A DNA stretch of 64,000 nt from a bacterium. GTDB taxonomy: Bacteria > Patescibacteriota > Saccharimonadia > Saccharimonadales > SZUA-47. The notes under the pieces were generated by a model that saw nothing but the letters and a program-made list of their open reading frames with translations, did not search any database and was not told where the DNA came from. How positions within the stretch are numbered: the stretch's first letter is position 1; every line of letters starts with the position of its first letter. The stretch is taken from the NCBI GenBank assembly GCA_030428125.1, contig JAUIBF010000001.1, positions 234,383-298,382 of the forward strand, in the 5' to 3' direction. The position numbers and the translations under genes are program-made. Positions 1-5,285 of this stretch are shown piece by piece.

Positions 1-695
1 TGAGACAGTTTGAAAAACTAGCTGATGACGGACTAACTGGCGAAGAGGTGTTTACTCTTTATGACACATATGGATTCCCTGTTGAGCTGAGCGTTGAAGA
101 GGCCGAGAAGAGGGATATTGCTATTGCTAACGATTGGGGCAAGGTATTCAACACAAAGATGACAGAACAGCGGGAGCGTTCTCAGACGGCCGCAAAGGGC
201 ACTTTTAAAGGTGGATTAGGTGGTCAGAGCATGCAGCACAAGAAATACCACACGGCTACGCATTTGATGTATCAGGCGTTGCGTGACGTATTAGGTGATC
301 ACGTGATTCAGCACGGTTCTAATATCACAGAGGAACGTCTGCGTTTTGATTTCTCGCATCCTGAAAAGATGACACCCGAGCAGATTAAACGAGTGGAAGA
401 CATTGTGAATGAGCAAATAGGTAAAGATTTGAAGGTGTCTTACGCTGAATATCCTACAGAAGAAGCGACCGGCCCACTAGGTGCACTAGGCCAATTCGGG
501 GACAGGTACGGTAATTCTGTAAAGGTATATAAAATGATTGCTGATGATGCTGAGAAACCGTTCAGTTTTGAAATATGTGGTGGTCCACACGTAGATCACA
601 CTTTGCAACTTTTTGAAGAAGATAAAAAATTCAAAATCACAAAAGAACAGTCCAGTTCCGCTGGTATACGTAGAATAAAAGCAGTGCTAGATTGA
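1..695 (+). CDS. alaS: alanine--tRNA ligase, C-terminal portion (5' end upstream of window)
   Basis: Frame 3 is open from the window edge (RQFEKLADDGLTGEEVFTLYDTYGFPVEL). AlaRS editing-domain motifs are present: HTATHL, GSNITEERLRFDF, ICGGPHV. TGA stop at 693-695. Confidence 0.9.
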   Translation, partial: RQFEKLADDGLTGEEVFTLYDTYGFPVELSVEEAEKRDIAIANDWGKVFNTKMTEQRERSQTAAKGTFKGGLGGQSMQHKKYHTATHLMYQALRDVLGDHVIQHGSNITEERLRFDFSHPEKMTPEQIKRVEDIVNEQIGKDLKVSYAEYPTEEATGPLGALGQFGDRYGNSVKVYKMIADDAEKPFSFEICGGPHVDHTLQLFEEDKKFKITKEQSSSAGIRRIKAVLD

Positions 696-781
696 GCTCG
701 GGAAGAGCAGCCAGCAGAGGTGATTTATTCGCCTCTCCTGCGCGATGAGAAACCCTGAAAGGGTGTCTCATAGGATTTCTC
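696..781. other. 86-nt structured insert between two copies of the alaS 3' end
   Basis: Hairpins at 717-735 (GAGGTG/CGCCTC) and 747-769 (GAGAAACCC-TGAAA-GGGTGTCTC). A 9-bp inverted repeat GATGAGAAA/TTTCTCATC lies at 744-752 and 776-784. No ORF. Confidence 0.5.
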
Positions 782-841
782 ATCACAAAAGAACAGTCCA
801 GTTCCGCTGGTATACGCAGAATCAAAGCCGTTTTAATCTAA
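782..841 (+). pseudogene. displaced duplicate of the last 19 codons plus stop of alaS
   Basis: 782-816 is identical to 636-670. The remainder encodes the same peptide (ITKEQSSSAGIRRIKAVLI*) with mostly synonymous differences. Confidence 0.8.
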
Positions 842-1004
842 ACATGTAAACAAGTTGTGGTGTAGTAATTAAATCTACAAACACTACATGTAGTGCTTTT
901 CAAAAAAAGTAATTATTCTGTGATATAAATCACAGCTTTGTGGTGATTGCGGGCGTAGTGTCTAGATAACCTTAAGTTATATTAAACAAATAGGTACTAC
1001 AAAA

Positions 1005-1418
1005 ATGGTTAATCGAGTAAAAATAAACGGTCAATTTGAAACCGTTGCTCGATTCAGCGCTCACTACAATGAAGGCTGGAACCAATGTCTCGAAGGTCTA
1101 GGTGCTCTGCAACTAGGCCATTTAATGTATAATCCCGGAGAATTCCCAGGATTAACTGGCGTATATCCGAGAGACTCAGATGTTCATTCCCGGTTTATCC
1201 ACTATTGGACGTCAGACGAAGAAATTACTCATCATAGAGTTTTACATGCTGGCAGGGAATCAATTCAGGCTACGAGTTCCGCTGTGCTTCAATTAGTAAC
1301 AGCAGAATTTGAACCTCAGACGCCGAATTGGCTACAAGAAAAACACACAGCTGAACGTCAGGTATACGGACAAATGCCTACGGAGCTTCCGTCGAGACAA
1401 AGGGTGGGAGTAGCTTAA
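1005..1418 (+). CDS. hypothetical protein (orphan, 137 aa, 2 Lys)
   Basis: Long ORF, first of three tightly packed ORFs. No motif recognised. Confidence 0.6.
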   Translation: MVNRVKINGQFETVARFSAHYNEGWNQCLEGLGALQLGHLMYNPGEFPGLTGVYPRDSDVHSRFIHYWTSDEEITHHRVLHAGRESIQATSSAVLQLVTAEFEPQTPNWLQEKHTAERQVYGQMPTELPSRQRVGVA

Positions 1419-1419
1419 A

Positions 1420-2004
1420 ATGGTATTTCAGTCCCTCGAGCCAACACCAAACCTAGACGGCGCAGACAGGGCTGAACAGTACAGAGAAATGGATAGAGCC
1501 GACAGAGCAAGAATACTTTATGAGTCATTCATGCACGCAGATGATGACGAATTGTATATAGGCGACGAGGTGGGGGTTAAGGGGCTTCTGGTGTATCTAG
1601 TGGGGACCTACGTTTCACACAGGGGCGACGAGATAGCAAGTACGCATATATCATTCTCACCACCCACGAAAAAAATTACTTGCACCACAGACTTGGTGAG
1701 TATTTCGTCAGATGGAAGTGATGCGCCTACATTGGACTCGGTTGCTAGGCTTGGTCTAGAGATATTGAGAGAAGAGTACGGAGCGGAAGAAGGAGACCCT
1801 AGGTTCGCTGATTTAGGGTCATTCTGCATGGCCGAGGATATTTCGATTCGTAGTCTCCCAGAATCCCTAACATCTGTTCCTCAAATCGGAGCCATCGAGT
1901 GGCTCGCTGCTCATAGATCACCCGAGCTAGCAGAGGTGCGAAAGCTACCAGTAGCTTATGTGGACGGATCAGACGTAGTACAGGCAGTAGCAGTAGGCAA
2001 TTAA
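1420..2004 (+). CDS. hypothetical protein (orphan, acidic, 194 aa)
   Basis: ATG lies 1 nt after the upstream stop. GGGTGGGAG Shine-Dalgarno-like sequence upstream. No motif recognised. Confidence 0.6.
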   Translation: MVFQSLEPTPNLDGADRAEQYREMDRADRARILYESFMHADDDELYIGDEVGVKGLLVYLVGTYVSHRGDEIASTHISFSPPTKKITCTTDLVSISSDGSDAPTLDSVARLGLEILREEYGAEEGDPRFADLGSFCMAEDISIRSLPESLTSVPQIGAIEWLAAHRSPELAEVRKLPVAYVDGSDVVQAVAVGN

Positions 2005-2006
2005 CT

Positions 2007-2273
2007 ATGTATTTACAAAATGTAGGAATCGAAGCGCCCCAAGGAACTGGTGGGGGTGGCTACCGTGTTGAAAGAGGAATAACTCCCGGGGTTGCTATCG
2101 TGACAAAAGATCCATCCGAATTTAGTGTAATAAGAGAAATAGGAAGTAGTCCAGAAGTAGATATCAGAAGCATGAAGATAACCGAATCTATAGGATATGT
2201 GACAATACCCCAACCAGTTAATGTGGACGCGTTACCCGATTGCGCTCGTGTACTATTTGCTGTTGCTGCGTAG
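2007..2273 (+). CDS. hypothetical protein (orphan, 88 aa)
   Basis: ATG lies 2 nt after the upstream stop. Contains a GTGGGG glycine run. No motif recognised. Confidence 0.5.
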   Translation: MYLQNVGIEAPQGTGGGGYRVERGITPGVAIVTKDPSEFSVIREIGSSPEVDIRSMKITESIGYVTIPQPVNVDALPDCARVLFAVAA

Positions 2274-2333: not shown

Positions 2334-3635
2334 ATGCTAGACAAAATTCAGAGGGTTAAGGATAGTGTTCTAGAAAAAACTAGAGCGCGAACTGACAAGG
2401 TTGCTGAACGCTACATTGTGGCTTTAGATGTAGGAACGGAAAACGTGAAAGCTCTGATTGGCAAAATCAACGGAAATAACGTAGATATCATAGGAGTTGG
2501 CAAAGCCCATCAGGGTTTATCAGATATGCAAGCAGGTGCTGTTGCTGATATTGCCGCTGTTACTGCTAACTGCAACGAGGCATTGGCTCAAGCTGAAGAA
2601 CAGGCTGGGGTTAGTGCACGTGCAGTAGTAATTGGAATTGCTGGCGAACTAGTCAAAGGCACAACCATATCTGTTAGGGTTTCCCGGAAAGACGGCAAAA
2701 AACCTCTAGAGGTAGAAGAAGTTGAAAAGATTATTTCGCTTGTCCAAAAAAGAGCTTTCGAGAAAGCACGCAAGCAAATTGCTACCGAATTGGGTGGCAA
2801 AGAAGTCGACGTCCAGTTGGTTAATAGTGCGCTAGTGCGAATGGAGATTGATGGCTATGCCGTCACTAACCCTGTAGGGTTTCAAGGAAAAGAAGTCACA
2901 GTACAGCTTTACACAGCTTTTGCACCGTTGATTCACATCGGTGCACTGGAGCAAGTTGCCACACAACTAGACATGGATTTGCTGGCAGTTGCTGCAGAGC
3001 CTTTCGCGGTTGCCAGATCAGTTGTCGGTGATGACACGGAATCGACCTTTAGCGCTGTTTTAATGGATGTAGGTGGTGGGACTACGGATATCGCAGTCTT
3101 AAATGAGGGTGGAGTCCAAGGGACAAAGATGTTTGGCATTGGTGGACGTGCATTTACTAGGTCGGTTGAGCGTGAGCTGGACATTTCATTCGACGAAGCA
3201 GAGACAATGAAATTAGCGTTAGGAAAGGGTGCATTATCTGAGTCTAAGCGAAAGACTACCGAAAAAGCCCTGGGTAAAACAGTAAAAGTTTGGCGTTCAG
3301 GTGTCGAACTTGCTCTAGAAGAGTTTCAGAATCTAGATCACCTGCCTCATAACATTCTACTTTGTGGTGGTGGTGCTTCCCTGCAACTGCTGATCGATGA
3401 GCTAGAACAGTCTAGCTGGTATAGAAGTTTGCCGTTTGCAAAAAAACCAACGGTTAAATATATTTCACCAGAAACAGTCTCTGGGATAATTGATACAACT
3501 GAAAATCTCGATGATCACACATTCATAACTGCCATGGGACTTTTAAGAGTAGGAATTGATACAATAGGACAGACAGATGCCGATGATGACTCAGTAAGCA
3601 TCGGCGACAGAATAAACAGAATTTTAAGAATATAA
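2334..3635 (+). CDS. ftsA: actin/HSP70-fold ATPase, FtsA-like cell division protein
   Basis: Phosphate-binding motifs ALDVGTENVKALIG and VLMDVGGGTTDIAVL, plus ILLCGGGASL. Overall FtsA-like motif order. TGaTACAAT box at 2316-2324. Confidence 0.6.
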   Translation: MLDKIQRVKDSVLEKTRARTDKVAERYIVALDVGTENVKALIGKINGNNVDIIGVGKAHQGLSDMQAGAVADIAAVTANCNEALAQAEEQAGVSARAVVIGIAGELVKGTTISVRVSRKDGKKPLEVEEVEKIISLVQKRAFEKARKQIATELGGKEVDVQLVNSALVRMEIDGYAVTNPVGFQGKEVTVQLYTAFAPLIHIGALEQVATQLDMDLLAVAAEPFAVARSVVGDDTESTFSAVLMDVGGGTTDIAVLNEGGVQGTKMFGIGGRAFTRSVERELDISFDEAETMKLALGKGALSESKRKTTEKALGKTVKVWRSGVELALEEFQNLDHLPHNILLCGGGASLQLLIDELEQSSWYRSLPFAKKPTVKYISPETVSGIIDTTENLDDHTFITAMGLLRVGIDTIGQTDADDDSVSIGDRINRILRI

Positions 3636-3638
3636 ATT

Positions 3639-5285
3639 ATGGCAAACAGCACAAAAGATACAGTTTATATAGATGTCGAAGATGAAATAACTGCTGTAAT
3701 TGATAAAGTCGTAAATGCCAAGCACAAAATTGTAGCGTTAGTTTTACCTAAACGAGCTACAGTGTTCCAAAGTCCGGTTAACATGAAGTTGCTCCAAAAA
3801 GCAGCAAAATCTGCCAAGAAAAGTTTGGTTTTGATTACTTCCGATAAAGGGATTCTAGCGATCGCAGCTGTAAGTGGTGTTCATGTTGCTAAATCTCTAA
3901 CCACCAAACCTGAAATTCCCAAGATTGAACAACCAGAGGAAAACATCGAAGAGAGTGTAGACTTAACCGGAGCAGCTATTGCTGGCGCAGCCGGAGCAGC
4001 AGCTGTTGCCGCAAGTACAGATGATAAAGATGAGGCTATCGAGCTAGATAATACTGACGAAAGAGCTATCACATCTGACGAAAAGCCAAAAAGTGGCAAG
4101 AAAAAACTGATGAAAATACCTGATTTCTCAAGCTTTAGGTTAAAGGTTGGCCTAGGAATTGCTGGAGTAGTGCTTCTCGTAGTTCTGTGGTTTGTGGCTT
4201 TTGTTGTTATGCCTAAGGCTACCGTGACAGTAAATACCGATACTTCAACCACTAGTGTAAATACTCAAGCTATATTCCGAGTAGGTGCAGAAGAAGTCGA
4301 TGTTGAAGAGAACATAATACCGGCTGAGCGAGTACAAGCAGAAAAAATTGATAGCATAAAAGTACCAGCTACCGGCCAAAAAGACATAGGCGAGAAAGCT
4401 ACGGGCACATTGACACTAACCAACTGTATCGACGACGGTGAACAGAAAGTCGTTCCTGCTGGAACAAGATTTACAAAAGACGGACTAACATTTGTAACTG
4501 CTGAGCAGGTAATATTGCCGTTCGCTATCGTTGCAGCCGGTGACTGTATCAGCGCAGATTTCGGAAGAAGCCGGGACGTAGATGCTGTTGCCGAAGAAGC
4601 AGGACCTCAGTACAACATATCCGAAGGTAGCTATAACTCCAGCATAAGTGGCATACAAGCATATGGGTCGGATATGAGTGGTGGAAGCTCTGAGATTGTC
4701 AAAGTAATTTCCGATGAAGATGTGCAAAAAGCCGAACAGCAGCTAAAAGGCACCAGCAAAACAGCTGCACTTAACGAAATGAAGTCACAATTAGAAGAAT
4801 CAGGGAAGACACCGGTCGAAGAAACTCTGGCAGAAGGAACTCCGAAAACAACCGTAGTTCCGGCAGTAGGAAAAGAGGCGGACGAAGTTGAAGTTACCAT
4901 AACTATCACCTATAACTTACAAGGTGTTAACGAAGACGATTTGTCTGCAGTTCTAGATCATGAAATTAATGAAAAGATGGGTGAAGATAAAAAGAACATC
5001 AAAGATAATGGCATAGAGGCAGTTAGATTCCAGGTAAGCGATAACTCTAATGAGGCAGACACTAACGTCACGCTTCAAACAGTTGCAACGCTGGGGCCAG
5101 ACATAGATGAAGCTGCCTTAAGAGAGGAGATTGCTGGAAAAAAACGTGGTGATATCGAAAAGCAAATCGAAGAAATTGATGGAGTTAGATCCGTGAGCGT
5201 AGAGTATTCTCCTGCCTGGGTTACTACAACTCCTAAAAGTGCCGATAAGATAACAATAGTTTTTAACGAACCAGATGAAGAATAA
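3639..5285 (+). CDS. single-pass membrane protein with large beta-rich C-terminal domain, function unknown
   Basis: Cytoplasmic N-domain, Ala/Gly/acidic linker, TM helix (GIAGVVLLVVLWFVAFVVM), then a KATVTV...ATGTLTLTN...VPAGTRFT segment. That segment resembles, from memory, baseplate-J-like annotated proteins of CPR genomes; this was not verified. Confidence 0.6.
   Translation: MANSTKDTVYIDVEDEITAVIDKVVNAKHKIVALVLPKRATVFQSPVNMKLLQKAAKSAKKSLVLITSDKGILAIAAVSGVHVAKSLTTKPEIPKIEQPEENIEESVDLTGAAIAGAAGAAAVAASTDDKDEAIELDNTDERAITSDEKPKSGKKKLMKIPDFSSFRLKVGLGIAGVVLLVVLWFVAFVVMPKATVTVNTDTSTTSVNTQAIFRVGAEEVDVEENIIPAERVQAEKIDSIKVPATGQKDIGEKATGTLTLTNCIDDGEQKVVPAGTRFTKDGLTFVTAEQVILPFAIVAAGDCISADFGRSRDVDAVAEEAGPQYNISEGSYNSSISGIQAYGSDMSGGSSEIVKVISDEDVQKAEQQLKGTSKTAALNEMKSQLEESGKTPVEETLAEGTPKTTVVPAVGKEADEVEVTITITYNLQGVNEDDLSAVLDHEINEKMGEDKKNIKDNGIEAVRFQVSDNSNEADTNVTLQTVATLGPDIDEAALREEIAGKKRGDIEKQIEEIDGVRSVSVEYSPAWVTTTPKSADKITIVFNEPDEE

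Follow-up and report, generated by a model that had tools for sequence, protein, structure and literature searches.

A dispersed two-hairpin element separates two copies of the alaS 3′ end in a Saccharibacteria genome

We analyzed a 64-kb stretch of a Saccharimonadales (Saccharibacteria/TM7) genome (contig JAUIBF010000001.1; hereafter "the window", all coordinates being window positions and all features lying on the + strand) in which the end of alaS, the gene for alanine-tRNA ligase (AlaRS), occurs twice, the two copies being separated by an 86-nt spacer (696–781). This spacer is one copy of a dispersed two-hairpin element of ~75–80 nt in Saccharibacteria genomes, which we call element E. Database matches of the alaS product carried PF01411/PF07973, and its C-terminus was 77–85% identical to the AlaRS C-termini of 80 species-representative genomes of GTDB Saccharimonadales, the alaS loci of which formed our comparison set. 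The duplication of the alaS tail, with an identical 35-nt core and synonymously diverged ends, had been proposed in an initial annotation of this DNA and was borne out by direct reading, repeat search, and shuffling. Specifically, the core ATCACAAAAGAACAGTCCAGTTCCGCTGGTATACG occurs exactly twice in the 64 kb (636–670 and 782–816; 0 expected from 100 shuffles), the repeat search returned a 50-nt direct repeat at 94% identity (636–685/782–831), and in-frame likeness extends to both stops. Past the core, the two copies show five synonymous third-position differences (cgt/cgc, ata/atc, gca/gcc, gtg/gtt, and cta/tta), and they differ in the final codon (gat/atc, i.e., AVLD in copy 1 and AVLI in copy 2) and in the stop (tga/taa), for a tally of six synonymous codon changes, with stop-for-stop counted, and one amino acid change. 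Mismatches accordingly step from 0/35 nt to about 10/25. From the stop that precedes copy 2 onward, its frame has no ATG, GTG, or TTG.

The spacer is strongly structured, with an RNA fold of −41.2 kcal/mol for 690–790 (z = −4.5), a DNA fold with z = −4.2 for 696–781, and z-scores of about −4.2 to −5.5 overall for RNA and DNA folds against shuffles. The two hairpins that the initial annotation had placed at 717–735 and 747–769 were recovered in roughly these places, but our own fold sets different boundaries for both (P1 and P2, Table 1). Its inverted repeat near 744–784 is likewise present, at 744–756/772–784. Otherwise the spacer matched nothing we searched for: no open reading frame (ORF) of ≥30 aa beyond chance ORFs, no Rfam 15 family on 696–781 (hammerhead, twister, signal recognition particle, tRNA-like, and STAXI families included; E-value scan of 400–1200, E up to 10), no transfer RNA (tRNA) or transfer-messenger RNA at 636–841 (ARAGORN), and no terminator-like site in 696–781 by a Rho-independent terminator scan. 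A gathering-threshold Rfam scan of the window matched only four tRNAs.

Element E follows the plan GGGAAAAGAGCAG-P1-GCGCGAUGAGAAA-P2-UGUCUCAU, i.e., GGGAAAAGAGCAG, a variable hairpin P1, and then GCGCGAUGAGAAA(A)CC-loop-GG(U)UUGUCUCAU as hairpin P2. Relatives were first found by BLAST of the spacer against the 80 loci together with inspection, and a covariance model built from six copies (R1) matched seven copies in these loci. E was located past the alaS stop in loci L034, L020, and L006, directly 5′ of the alaS start in L058, and, in L045 and L061, between mnmA and a membrane-protein gene, where it lies on the opposite strand. Outside this set, a strict DNA pattern of E was detected in at least 120 metagenome contigs and in none of the viral contigs, a looser pattern having given nothing but chance matches in the viral set. 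Applied more widely, R1 identified 116 copies in 100 loci, with several contigs carrying 2–4 copies, while the window held no copy beyond the one described here, even with filters off. A literature search returned no description of E, and we consider it a previously uncatalogued family with an unusual signature.

The structure of E is real. Across the 116 copies, 97.9% of 2330 pair cells were standard pairs and 407 cells had changed on both sides, a level reached by 0 of 500 shuffles, while controls slid along the alignment were 38–51% paired. Changes within helices were almost purely from one Watson–Crick pair to another, with G.T in 19 and A.C in 12 of the 2330 cells. These data lean toward a constraint on complementarity itself and do not favor RNA over single-stranded or cruciform DNA; the occurrence of E in both orientations together with the almost purely Watson–Crick pairing fits an element acting at the DNA level. 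E is not coding, since core lengths spread over all three mod-3 classes (46, 38, and 49 copies), nor did we observe a conserved promoter or terminator within it. The unpaired core is nearly invariant across lineages whose genes are about 70% identical, and it most likely serves as the recognition target of a trans-acting enzyme or a DNA-level process, E itself probably having no function for alaS. In many copies, the terminal GTCTCAT is directly followed by an additional small hairpin (GGCGAAGCC or GCGAAGC).

What lies on either side of E at alaS recurs at many other targets. Exact direct repeats of ≥9 nt flanked 17 of 131 copies, for ~0.6 expected, and local alignment returned 28 flanking similarities, four of them merely adjacent tRNAs. 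Overall, about one fifth of the copies are flanked by repeats of the adjoining gene end, 9–71 nt in length. At alaS, these repeats measure 60 nt in the window and 54 nt at 98% identity in L034; at lepA, 42 nt at 100% (L251) and 56 nt (L236). The 5′ end of msrA, including its ATG, is repeated over 38 nt at 100% in L254 and also in L235, L214, L305, L292, L313, and L216. Further targets are the tail of a tlyA-like gene (66–71 nt in L316; also L320), cysS (L260), terminators (L213 and L294), the 3′ end of an opposite-strand tRNA (16 nt in L309), and operon junctions where the repeat holds stop, ribosome-binding site, and start (L218, L238, L297, L321, and L268), with aligned repeats seen at the L29/S17 and L3/L4 junctions. 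In each arrangement, the gene is kept intact by the repeat copy contiguous with it.

Comparison of related alaS 3′ regions, as the initial annotation had suggested, yielded both a filled and an empty site. L034 consists of the alaS tail, E, the 54-nt copy, and then an ftsA-like gene directly past copy 2, and the sequence past its copy 2 is orthologous to the sequence past the stop in the E-less locus L016. Similarly, the E-less junctions groES/groEL, S3/L16, and ssb/S18 correspond to the right-hand copy and downstream gene of their filled counterparts. Overall, the alaS repeat is the same insertion-associated duplication as that seen at many other targets. As a separate observation, a 9-nt direct repeat, AGCCGTAAA, stands immediately on both sides of E in L034 (4769–4777 and 4864–4872), inside the 54-nt alaS-tail repeats, and could be a short target duplication from a second step or a microhomology junction.

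We then evaluated how the flanking copies differ from each other. In 15 E-flanking pairs, third codon positions held 70 of 96 mismatches (73%; binomial p = 2.6e-15), and codon differences were synonymous in 63 cases and non-synonymous in 18, the relic keeping an in-frame stop or start at the homologous place. Examples include Arg codons AGG vs CGT in L260 and CGT vs AGA in L316, and 13 third-position changes within 19 codons in L236. The divergence is often polar: a stretch of identity gives way to synonymous divergence near saturation in the window, in L316 (0/39, then 6/27), in L227, and in L260. Copy 2 of L236 was 89% identical to the lepA tail of L251, for lepA genes that are 70% identical to each other. 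Given this third-position bias, the copies resemble genuine gene ends of distinct alleles, and the suggestion that the alaS tails had diverged under protein-level constraint generalizes to the family: the two flanking copies derive from different alleles. A neutral copy 2, even one occasionally overwritten from the functional copy, would be expected to show mainly first- and second-position differences and was rejected on this ground.

E is dispersed over a range of gene boundaries. Copies were located between cistrons (L22/S3, L29/S17, S17/L14, L3/L4, S6/ssb/S18, and groES/groEL), upstream of dnaK, secY, and argS, past lepA, nusG, cysS, and a tlyA-like gene, and divergently upstream of msrA. 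Between co-directional genes, 39 copies were sense and 25 antisense (based on crude gene calls), and in L239 both orientations occur inside one block where all eight called genes lie on one strand. E replaces the tip of helix 25 (E. coli ~543) of the 23S ribosomal RNA (rRNA) in L207 and L226, while the relatives L263, L270, L274, and L217 carry a plain UUCG-capped helix 25 without E; the 23S gene of L207 is ~416 nt longer than the Rfam model.

Some of these loci display additional features. In L229, L231, L246, L308, and L058, an AAAGGAG Shine–Dalgarno-like sequence lies ~20–25 nt upstream of E and the ATG of the downstream gene ~20 nt past it, so that E is wedged between ribosome-binding site and start codon. 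L243 (5364–7865) carries two inverted units of E and tRNA-Met(cat), one adjoined by a 528-aa serine-recombinase-like ORF (start MIIIPSDTERRKTAIAYVRVSSDKQ), and could represent an island that integrated at tRNA-Met, duplicating this tRNA along with the E next to it. L220, a contig that also carries E, contains LAGLIDADG-type ORFs within its 23S rRNA gene (2516–2992 and 4105–4593).

Downstream of copy 2 in the window, the two hairpins listed in Table 1 are candidate alaS terminators, now located past the repeat. An ftsA/pilM-like gene follows alaS in 71 of the 80 relatives, and in the window three ORFs are interposed. These ORFs had ordinary composition (GC 0.44–0.49), no Pfam match, and no homologue in the alaS neighborhoods of the 80 related genomes; since they are lineage-specific, the sequence past copy 2 is non-homologous to that of relatives. 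We found no third copy of the alaS tail on their far side. In another Saccharimonadales locus, L052 (2126–2342), a partial alaS-tail copy (GIRRIKAVL, with synonymous differences) lies 166 nt past the stop; the intervening sequence is not E by the covariance model, and this alaS end may be duplicated around a different insert.

Table 1 Features of the duplicated alaS end and of element E in the window.
Feature	Position	Strand	Remarks
alaS 3′ part (alanine-tRNA ligase)	3..695	+	Frame open at window start; TGA 693-695; from the ORF list
Repeat copy 1	636..695	+	Functional alaS end, 19 codons and stop, ITKEQSSSAGIRRIKAVLD; 636-670 identical with copy 2
Element E, window copy	695..775	+	Highest-scoring family member; covariance model R1, 92.7 bits, E=1e-19
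E optional short hairpin	696-699/705-708	+	
E conserved 5′ segment GGGAAGAGCAG	700-710	+	
E hairpin P1	710-743 (loop 724-728)	+	From the fold
E conserved junction GCGCGATGAGAAA	740-752	+	
E hairpin P2	745-771 (inner helix 752-756/760-764)	+	From the fold
E core end GTCTCAT	765-771	+	
Variable linker aggatttctc, E core to copy 2	772..781	+	3-21 nt in other copies
Repeat copy 2	782..841	+	alaS-tail copy, untranslated, ITKEQSSSAGIRRIKAVLI and stop; frame differs from alaS
Hairpins 3′ of copy 2	879..935	+	Palindrome 879-898, then CTTTTC; terminator-like site 918-935; consensus scans only
Three ORFs (137, 194, and 88 aa)	1005..2273	+	Between copy 2 and the ftsA-like gene; context, outside E

Taken together, we favor, with a probability of roughly 55%, E being a cargo-free miniature non-autonomous insert, with the alaS tails as an insertion-associated target duplication whose flanks later exchanged alleles independently. 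A miniature non-autonomous insert was among the options raised in the initial annotation, and it fits a spacer that belongs to a dispersed family. A small RNA, likewise raised there, is conceivable; E lies in both orientations relative to host transcription. Under this scenario, E would have been placed directly past the alaS stop, with copy 1 completing the gene and copy 2 left as an untranslated relic. The duplication would arise at insertion, via widely staggered nicks or replication template switching, a view supported by the occurrence of perfect 31–54-nt repeats, the varying repeat lengths, and the fuzzy junctions. In compact genomes, only those insertions that duplicate a gene boundary and leave both neighbors intact would survive, and surviving copies would thus be expected to straddle gene ends. 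Each flank of E could subsequently be overwritten by functional alleles of other lineages, independently of the other flank because homology ends at E and recombination tracts entering from one side or the other would end in or at the repeat, with the conserved core supplying a block of identity between otherwise diverged genomes. Such independent exchange would lead the copies to differ as orthologous alleles do, i.e., at synonymous sites, in the last codon, and in the stop. For the window, where downstream DNA is lineage-specific, exchange from the right could end only inside copy 2, which fits the sharp boundary at 670/816.

Several observations weigh against this scenario. We could link no transposase, reverse transcriptase, or recombinase to E, although no search for RAYT or TnpA was made, and all data are metagenome or metagenome-assembled genome (MAG) assemblies. 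The outer ends of E are fuzzy, with 0–45 nt unshared to the left and 3–21 nt to the right of the core. Most tRNA-adjacent copies, as well as the helix-25 copy, have no duplication: only L211 and L300 have a left flank that is a diverged version of the first 12–15 nt of the tRNA downstream, and duplicated tRNA 5′ ends were overall as frequent as in the control. The near-saturation of synonymous sites in the diverged parts implies that donors were distant, and at such divergence homologous exchange works inefficiently. As for which tail is native to the window, the protein collection holds no relative closer than 84%, and the comparison of GC content at third codon positions (GC3) is ambiguous. 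The remaining points, namely the sites common to diverged lineages (alaS in 4, msrA in 7, lepA in 2), which would fit an old, selected, functional element, and the association with tRNA and rRNA genes, which hints at an RNA-level role, bear directly on the alternatives below.

The main rival, which is possible but in our view unlikely, is that the surrogate end was imported: the alaS tail of another lineage, together with its E, would have entered an E-less genome through a homologous crossover within alaS (where the identical 35 nt end) and an illegitimate join to the right of E, upstream of the resident stop. The distal part of copy 1 and E would then be foreign and copy 2 the resident's original tail, with no need for a transposase-made target duplication. 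The sharp mismatch switch of the window is expected under such an import, as are the similar boundaries in L316, L227, and L260, and the natural transformability of Saccharibacteria reported in PMC10633639 is consistent with it. Because the region downstream of the window repeat is lineage-specific, a second homologous arm would indeed have been lacking. Composition also agrees at some loci, with the GC3 of copy 2 closer than that of copy 1 to the gene body (0.70 in L236, 0.69 in L227) and GC at the differing third positions of 4/13 in copy 1 vs 9/13 in copy 2 for L236, and 1/5 vs 5/5 for L227, but the comparison is reversed at the msrA loci L305 and L313. The donor must already hold E beside the same gene, so that first arrivals at new sites go unexplained, the perfect 38–42-nt repeats of L251 and L254 would require a near-clonal E-bearing donor with an identical gene end, and anchored recombination is inefficient at ~70–75% identity. 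Alternatively, and improbably, E may be mainly a functional, selected module, either a unit cut by RNase III or RNase P, similar to an intervening sequence (IVS) or serving in leader processing or insulation, or a protein-binding site, with the duplications incidental to an old acquisition. A same-strand tRNA follows 3–17 nt downstream of E in 31 of 133 copies, against three cases with an opposite-strand tRNA, and the rRNA operon of L207 (69–3629, minus strand) holds four copies, one ending 9 nt before the 23S 5′ end, one further upstream, one at helix 25 (where IVS classically lie), and another in the region of helix 63, all sense in the 23S cases. The copies between ribosomal-protein cistrons and groES/groEL or upstream of dnaK and secY, the near-invariant unpaired core, and the sites common to several lineages point the same way. 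Conversely, ~20–25 copies are antisense to co-directional host genes and L239 holds both orientations, G.U pairs are not in excess over A.C and promoters or terminators are not conserved, and none of the four tRNA genes of the window has an E. An RNA-level role would be compatible with mobility: the tRNA and rRNA association and core conservation suggest it, and the antisense copies and lack of wobble pairs weaken it.

Two further explanations appear very improbable. The initial annotation had read the tails as attL and attR, i.e., the scar of a lost site-specific integrative island with the alaS 3′ end as attB. Such islands do leave a direct repeat of the gene 3′ end with an identical core and diverged tails, and three lineage-specific ORFs lie directly downstream, but these ORFs are outside the repeats and only E lies between them. 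The same cargo-free arrangement of gene end, E, and gene end at alaS, lepA, the msrA 5′ end, the tlyA-like gene, cysS, terminators, a tRNA 3′ end, and ribosomal-protein junctions, seen at >20 other loci, weighs against this reading, since one site-specific recombinase acting on a fixed core would not yield so many unrelated targets and repeat lengths ranging from 9 to 71 nt. In L034, the ftsA-like gene stands immediately past copy 2 of this same arrangement, the window lacks a third tail copy downstream, no full island with an integrase was found between two alaS tails among the 80 loci, and a non-exhaustive search detected no integrase in the window. An assembly artefact or strain chimera, i.e., two alaS alleles stitched together at a repeated element, is no more credible. 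All sequences are metagenome-derived, the copies look allelic, and in the Logan assembly of run ERR3428546 an independent contig begins at 787, inside the repeat, and continues with the copy-2 tail and downstream genes; a break within copy 2 is what the 35-nt repeat would cause in a k=31 assembly. Yet some real molecule must contain the junction that leads from the right end of E into the middle of the alaS tail, dozens of independent assemblies, produced in different studies and with different assemblers, show this architecture, and the perfect 38–54-nt repeats are shorter than the k=141 of contigs named k141_.

Saccharibacteria and other bacteria of the candidate phyla radiation (CPR) have tiny, tightly packed genomes with few recognized mobile elements. 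E gives a common origin and a searchable signature to oddities at 23S helix 25, in front of tRNA and 23S genes, at ribosomal-protein junctions, and at alaS-type gene ends; the short rRNA insertions of Saccharibacteria had been counted before, without explanation (PMC11270868). The gene-end duplicates record insertion events and, given that the copies differ like alleles, also record inter-lineage recombination at single-nucleotide resolution, so that gene flow in an uncultured phylum becomes directly measurable. For annotation, E accounts for short ORFs that are spurious, for contigs that break off at gene ends, and for apparent 3′-end pseudogene fragments in these MAGs. More tentatively, and against the odds as we see them, E could represent a new kind of propagating element: a ~75-nt structured module that would place new copies of itself at gene boundaries, at the 5′ ends of tRNAs, and in rRNA loops, with long variable duplications (RNA-templated or by template switch), and that would move from one species to another with its core and the duplicated gene end serving as portable homology, taking a substitute gene end along. 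If so, the 23S IVS, tRNA leaders, and intercistronic inserts of Saccharibacteria would be one family, and if the duplication proves to be RNA-templated or based on template switching, this would be a type of mobility undescribed in bacteria.

A number of candidate identities were considered and rejected. A variable/template repeat pair of a diversity-generating retroelement does not fit, as the differences (T/C, A/C, A/C, G/T, and C/T) are not confined to adenines and the nearest ORFs carry no reverse transcriptase domain. The likeness of GGAAGCAGCC to GGAAAGAGCAGCC of the signal recognition particle RNA comes with a different topology and no Rfam match, that to hammerhead ribozymes (GAUGAG...GAAA) with the wrong core order and no Rfam match, and group II intron domain 5 with neither a GNRA loop nor a match. 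A RAGATH-1 hammerhead match inside alaS (513–590) scored 22 bits vs a gathering threshold of 56.3 (E = 0.43) and is most likely due to chance. AGCTNA (e.g., AGCTCA) precedes E in 12 of 133 copies, for instance in the 3500–3520 region of L207 and in L208, L211, and L058, where TAGCTCAG-GGAAA-AGAGCAGC resembles a tRNA D-arm (cf. tRNA-Lys TAGCTCAGTCGGTTAGAGCAGC); with the likeness limited to these 12 and the remainder of E not tRNA-like, we keep a tRNA-derived origin as a remark only. A small ORF running through E (ribosome-binding site and ATG 15 nt upstream in L202, L219, and L234) is more readily accounted for by duplication of the downstream gene's start, core lengths being out of frame; a promoter inside E is contradicted by a spacing that varies with the P2 loop, and an orientation tied to replication by the two orientations within the one-strand block of L239.

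Among known systems, surrogate-3′-end islands and prophages (with attB in tRNA, transfer-messenger RNA, or protein genes) resemble the E sites in that one copy completes the gene while the other is an allele-like relic, but E has no integrase, cargo, or fixed core, and its targets include gene 5′ ends, terminators, and operon junctions. LINE/SINE-type (long and short interspersed nuclear element) retroposition by target-primed reverse transcription is similar in its variable duplications, variable 5′ junctions, and better-defined 3′ end; this is a resemblance only, as E has no A-tail and no link to a reverse transcriptase, and to our knowledge such elements are not known in bacteria. By position, the helix-25 copies of L207 and L226 would qualify as 23S IVS (helix 25/helix 45), a definition that does not apply to the window copy. 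We know of no IVS described outside rRNA, whereas members of the E family are also found at intergenic, tRNA, and mRNA sites. Among 66 insertions in Saccharibacteria rRNA, 64 were short (250 bp or less) and devoid of introns or homing endonucleases, and where CPR 23S genes carry short insertions at classical IVS positions, these were considered probable IVS (PMC11270868). Transposable elements of the miniature inverted-repeat type (MITEs; Correia/NEMIS, RUP, BOX) are, like E, miniature, non-autonomous, located at gene boundaries, and co-transcribed with their neighbors, but they have terminal inverted repeats and a fixed short duplication (2–10 bp); E has neither, its ends GGGAAAAGAGCAG and TGTCTCAT not being complementary and its hairpins being internal. 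Repetitive extragenic palindromic (REP) sequences and REPINs, together with IS200/IS605-derived hairpin elements (mobilized in trans by Y1 HUH transposases), are likewise short, non-coding, extragenic, and dispersed, with hairpins and conserved flanking bases, and E shares with them a palindromic unit with conserved, strictly Watson–Crick stem pairing that is extragenic and occurs in either orientation. These elements make no target duplication, insert at a short specific motif, and usually number tens to hundreds of copies, whereas E has 9–71-nt target repeats, two different hairpins instead of an inverted doublet, and one copy in the 64-kb window. Overall, while it departs from the definitions of these elements in target duplication and termini, E works most like REP/REPIN or IS200/IS605-derived hairpin elements and like MITEs.

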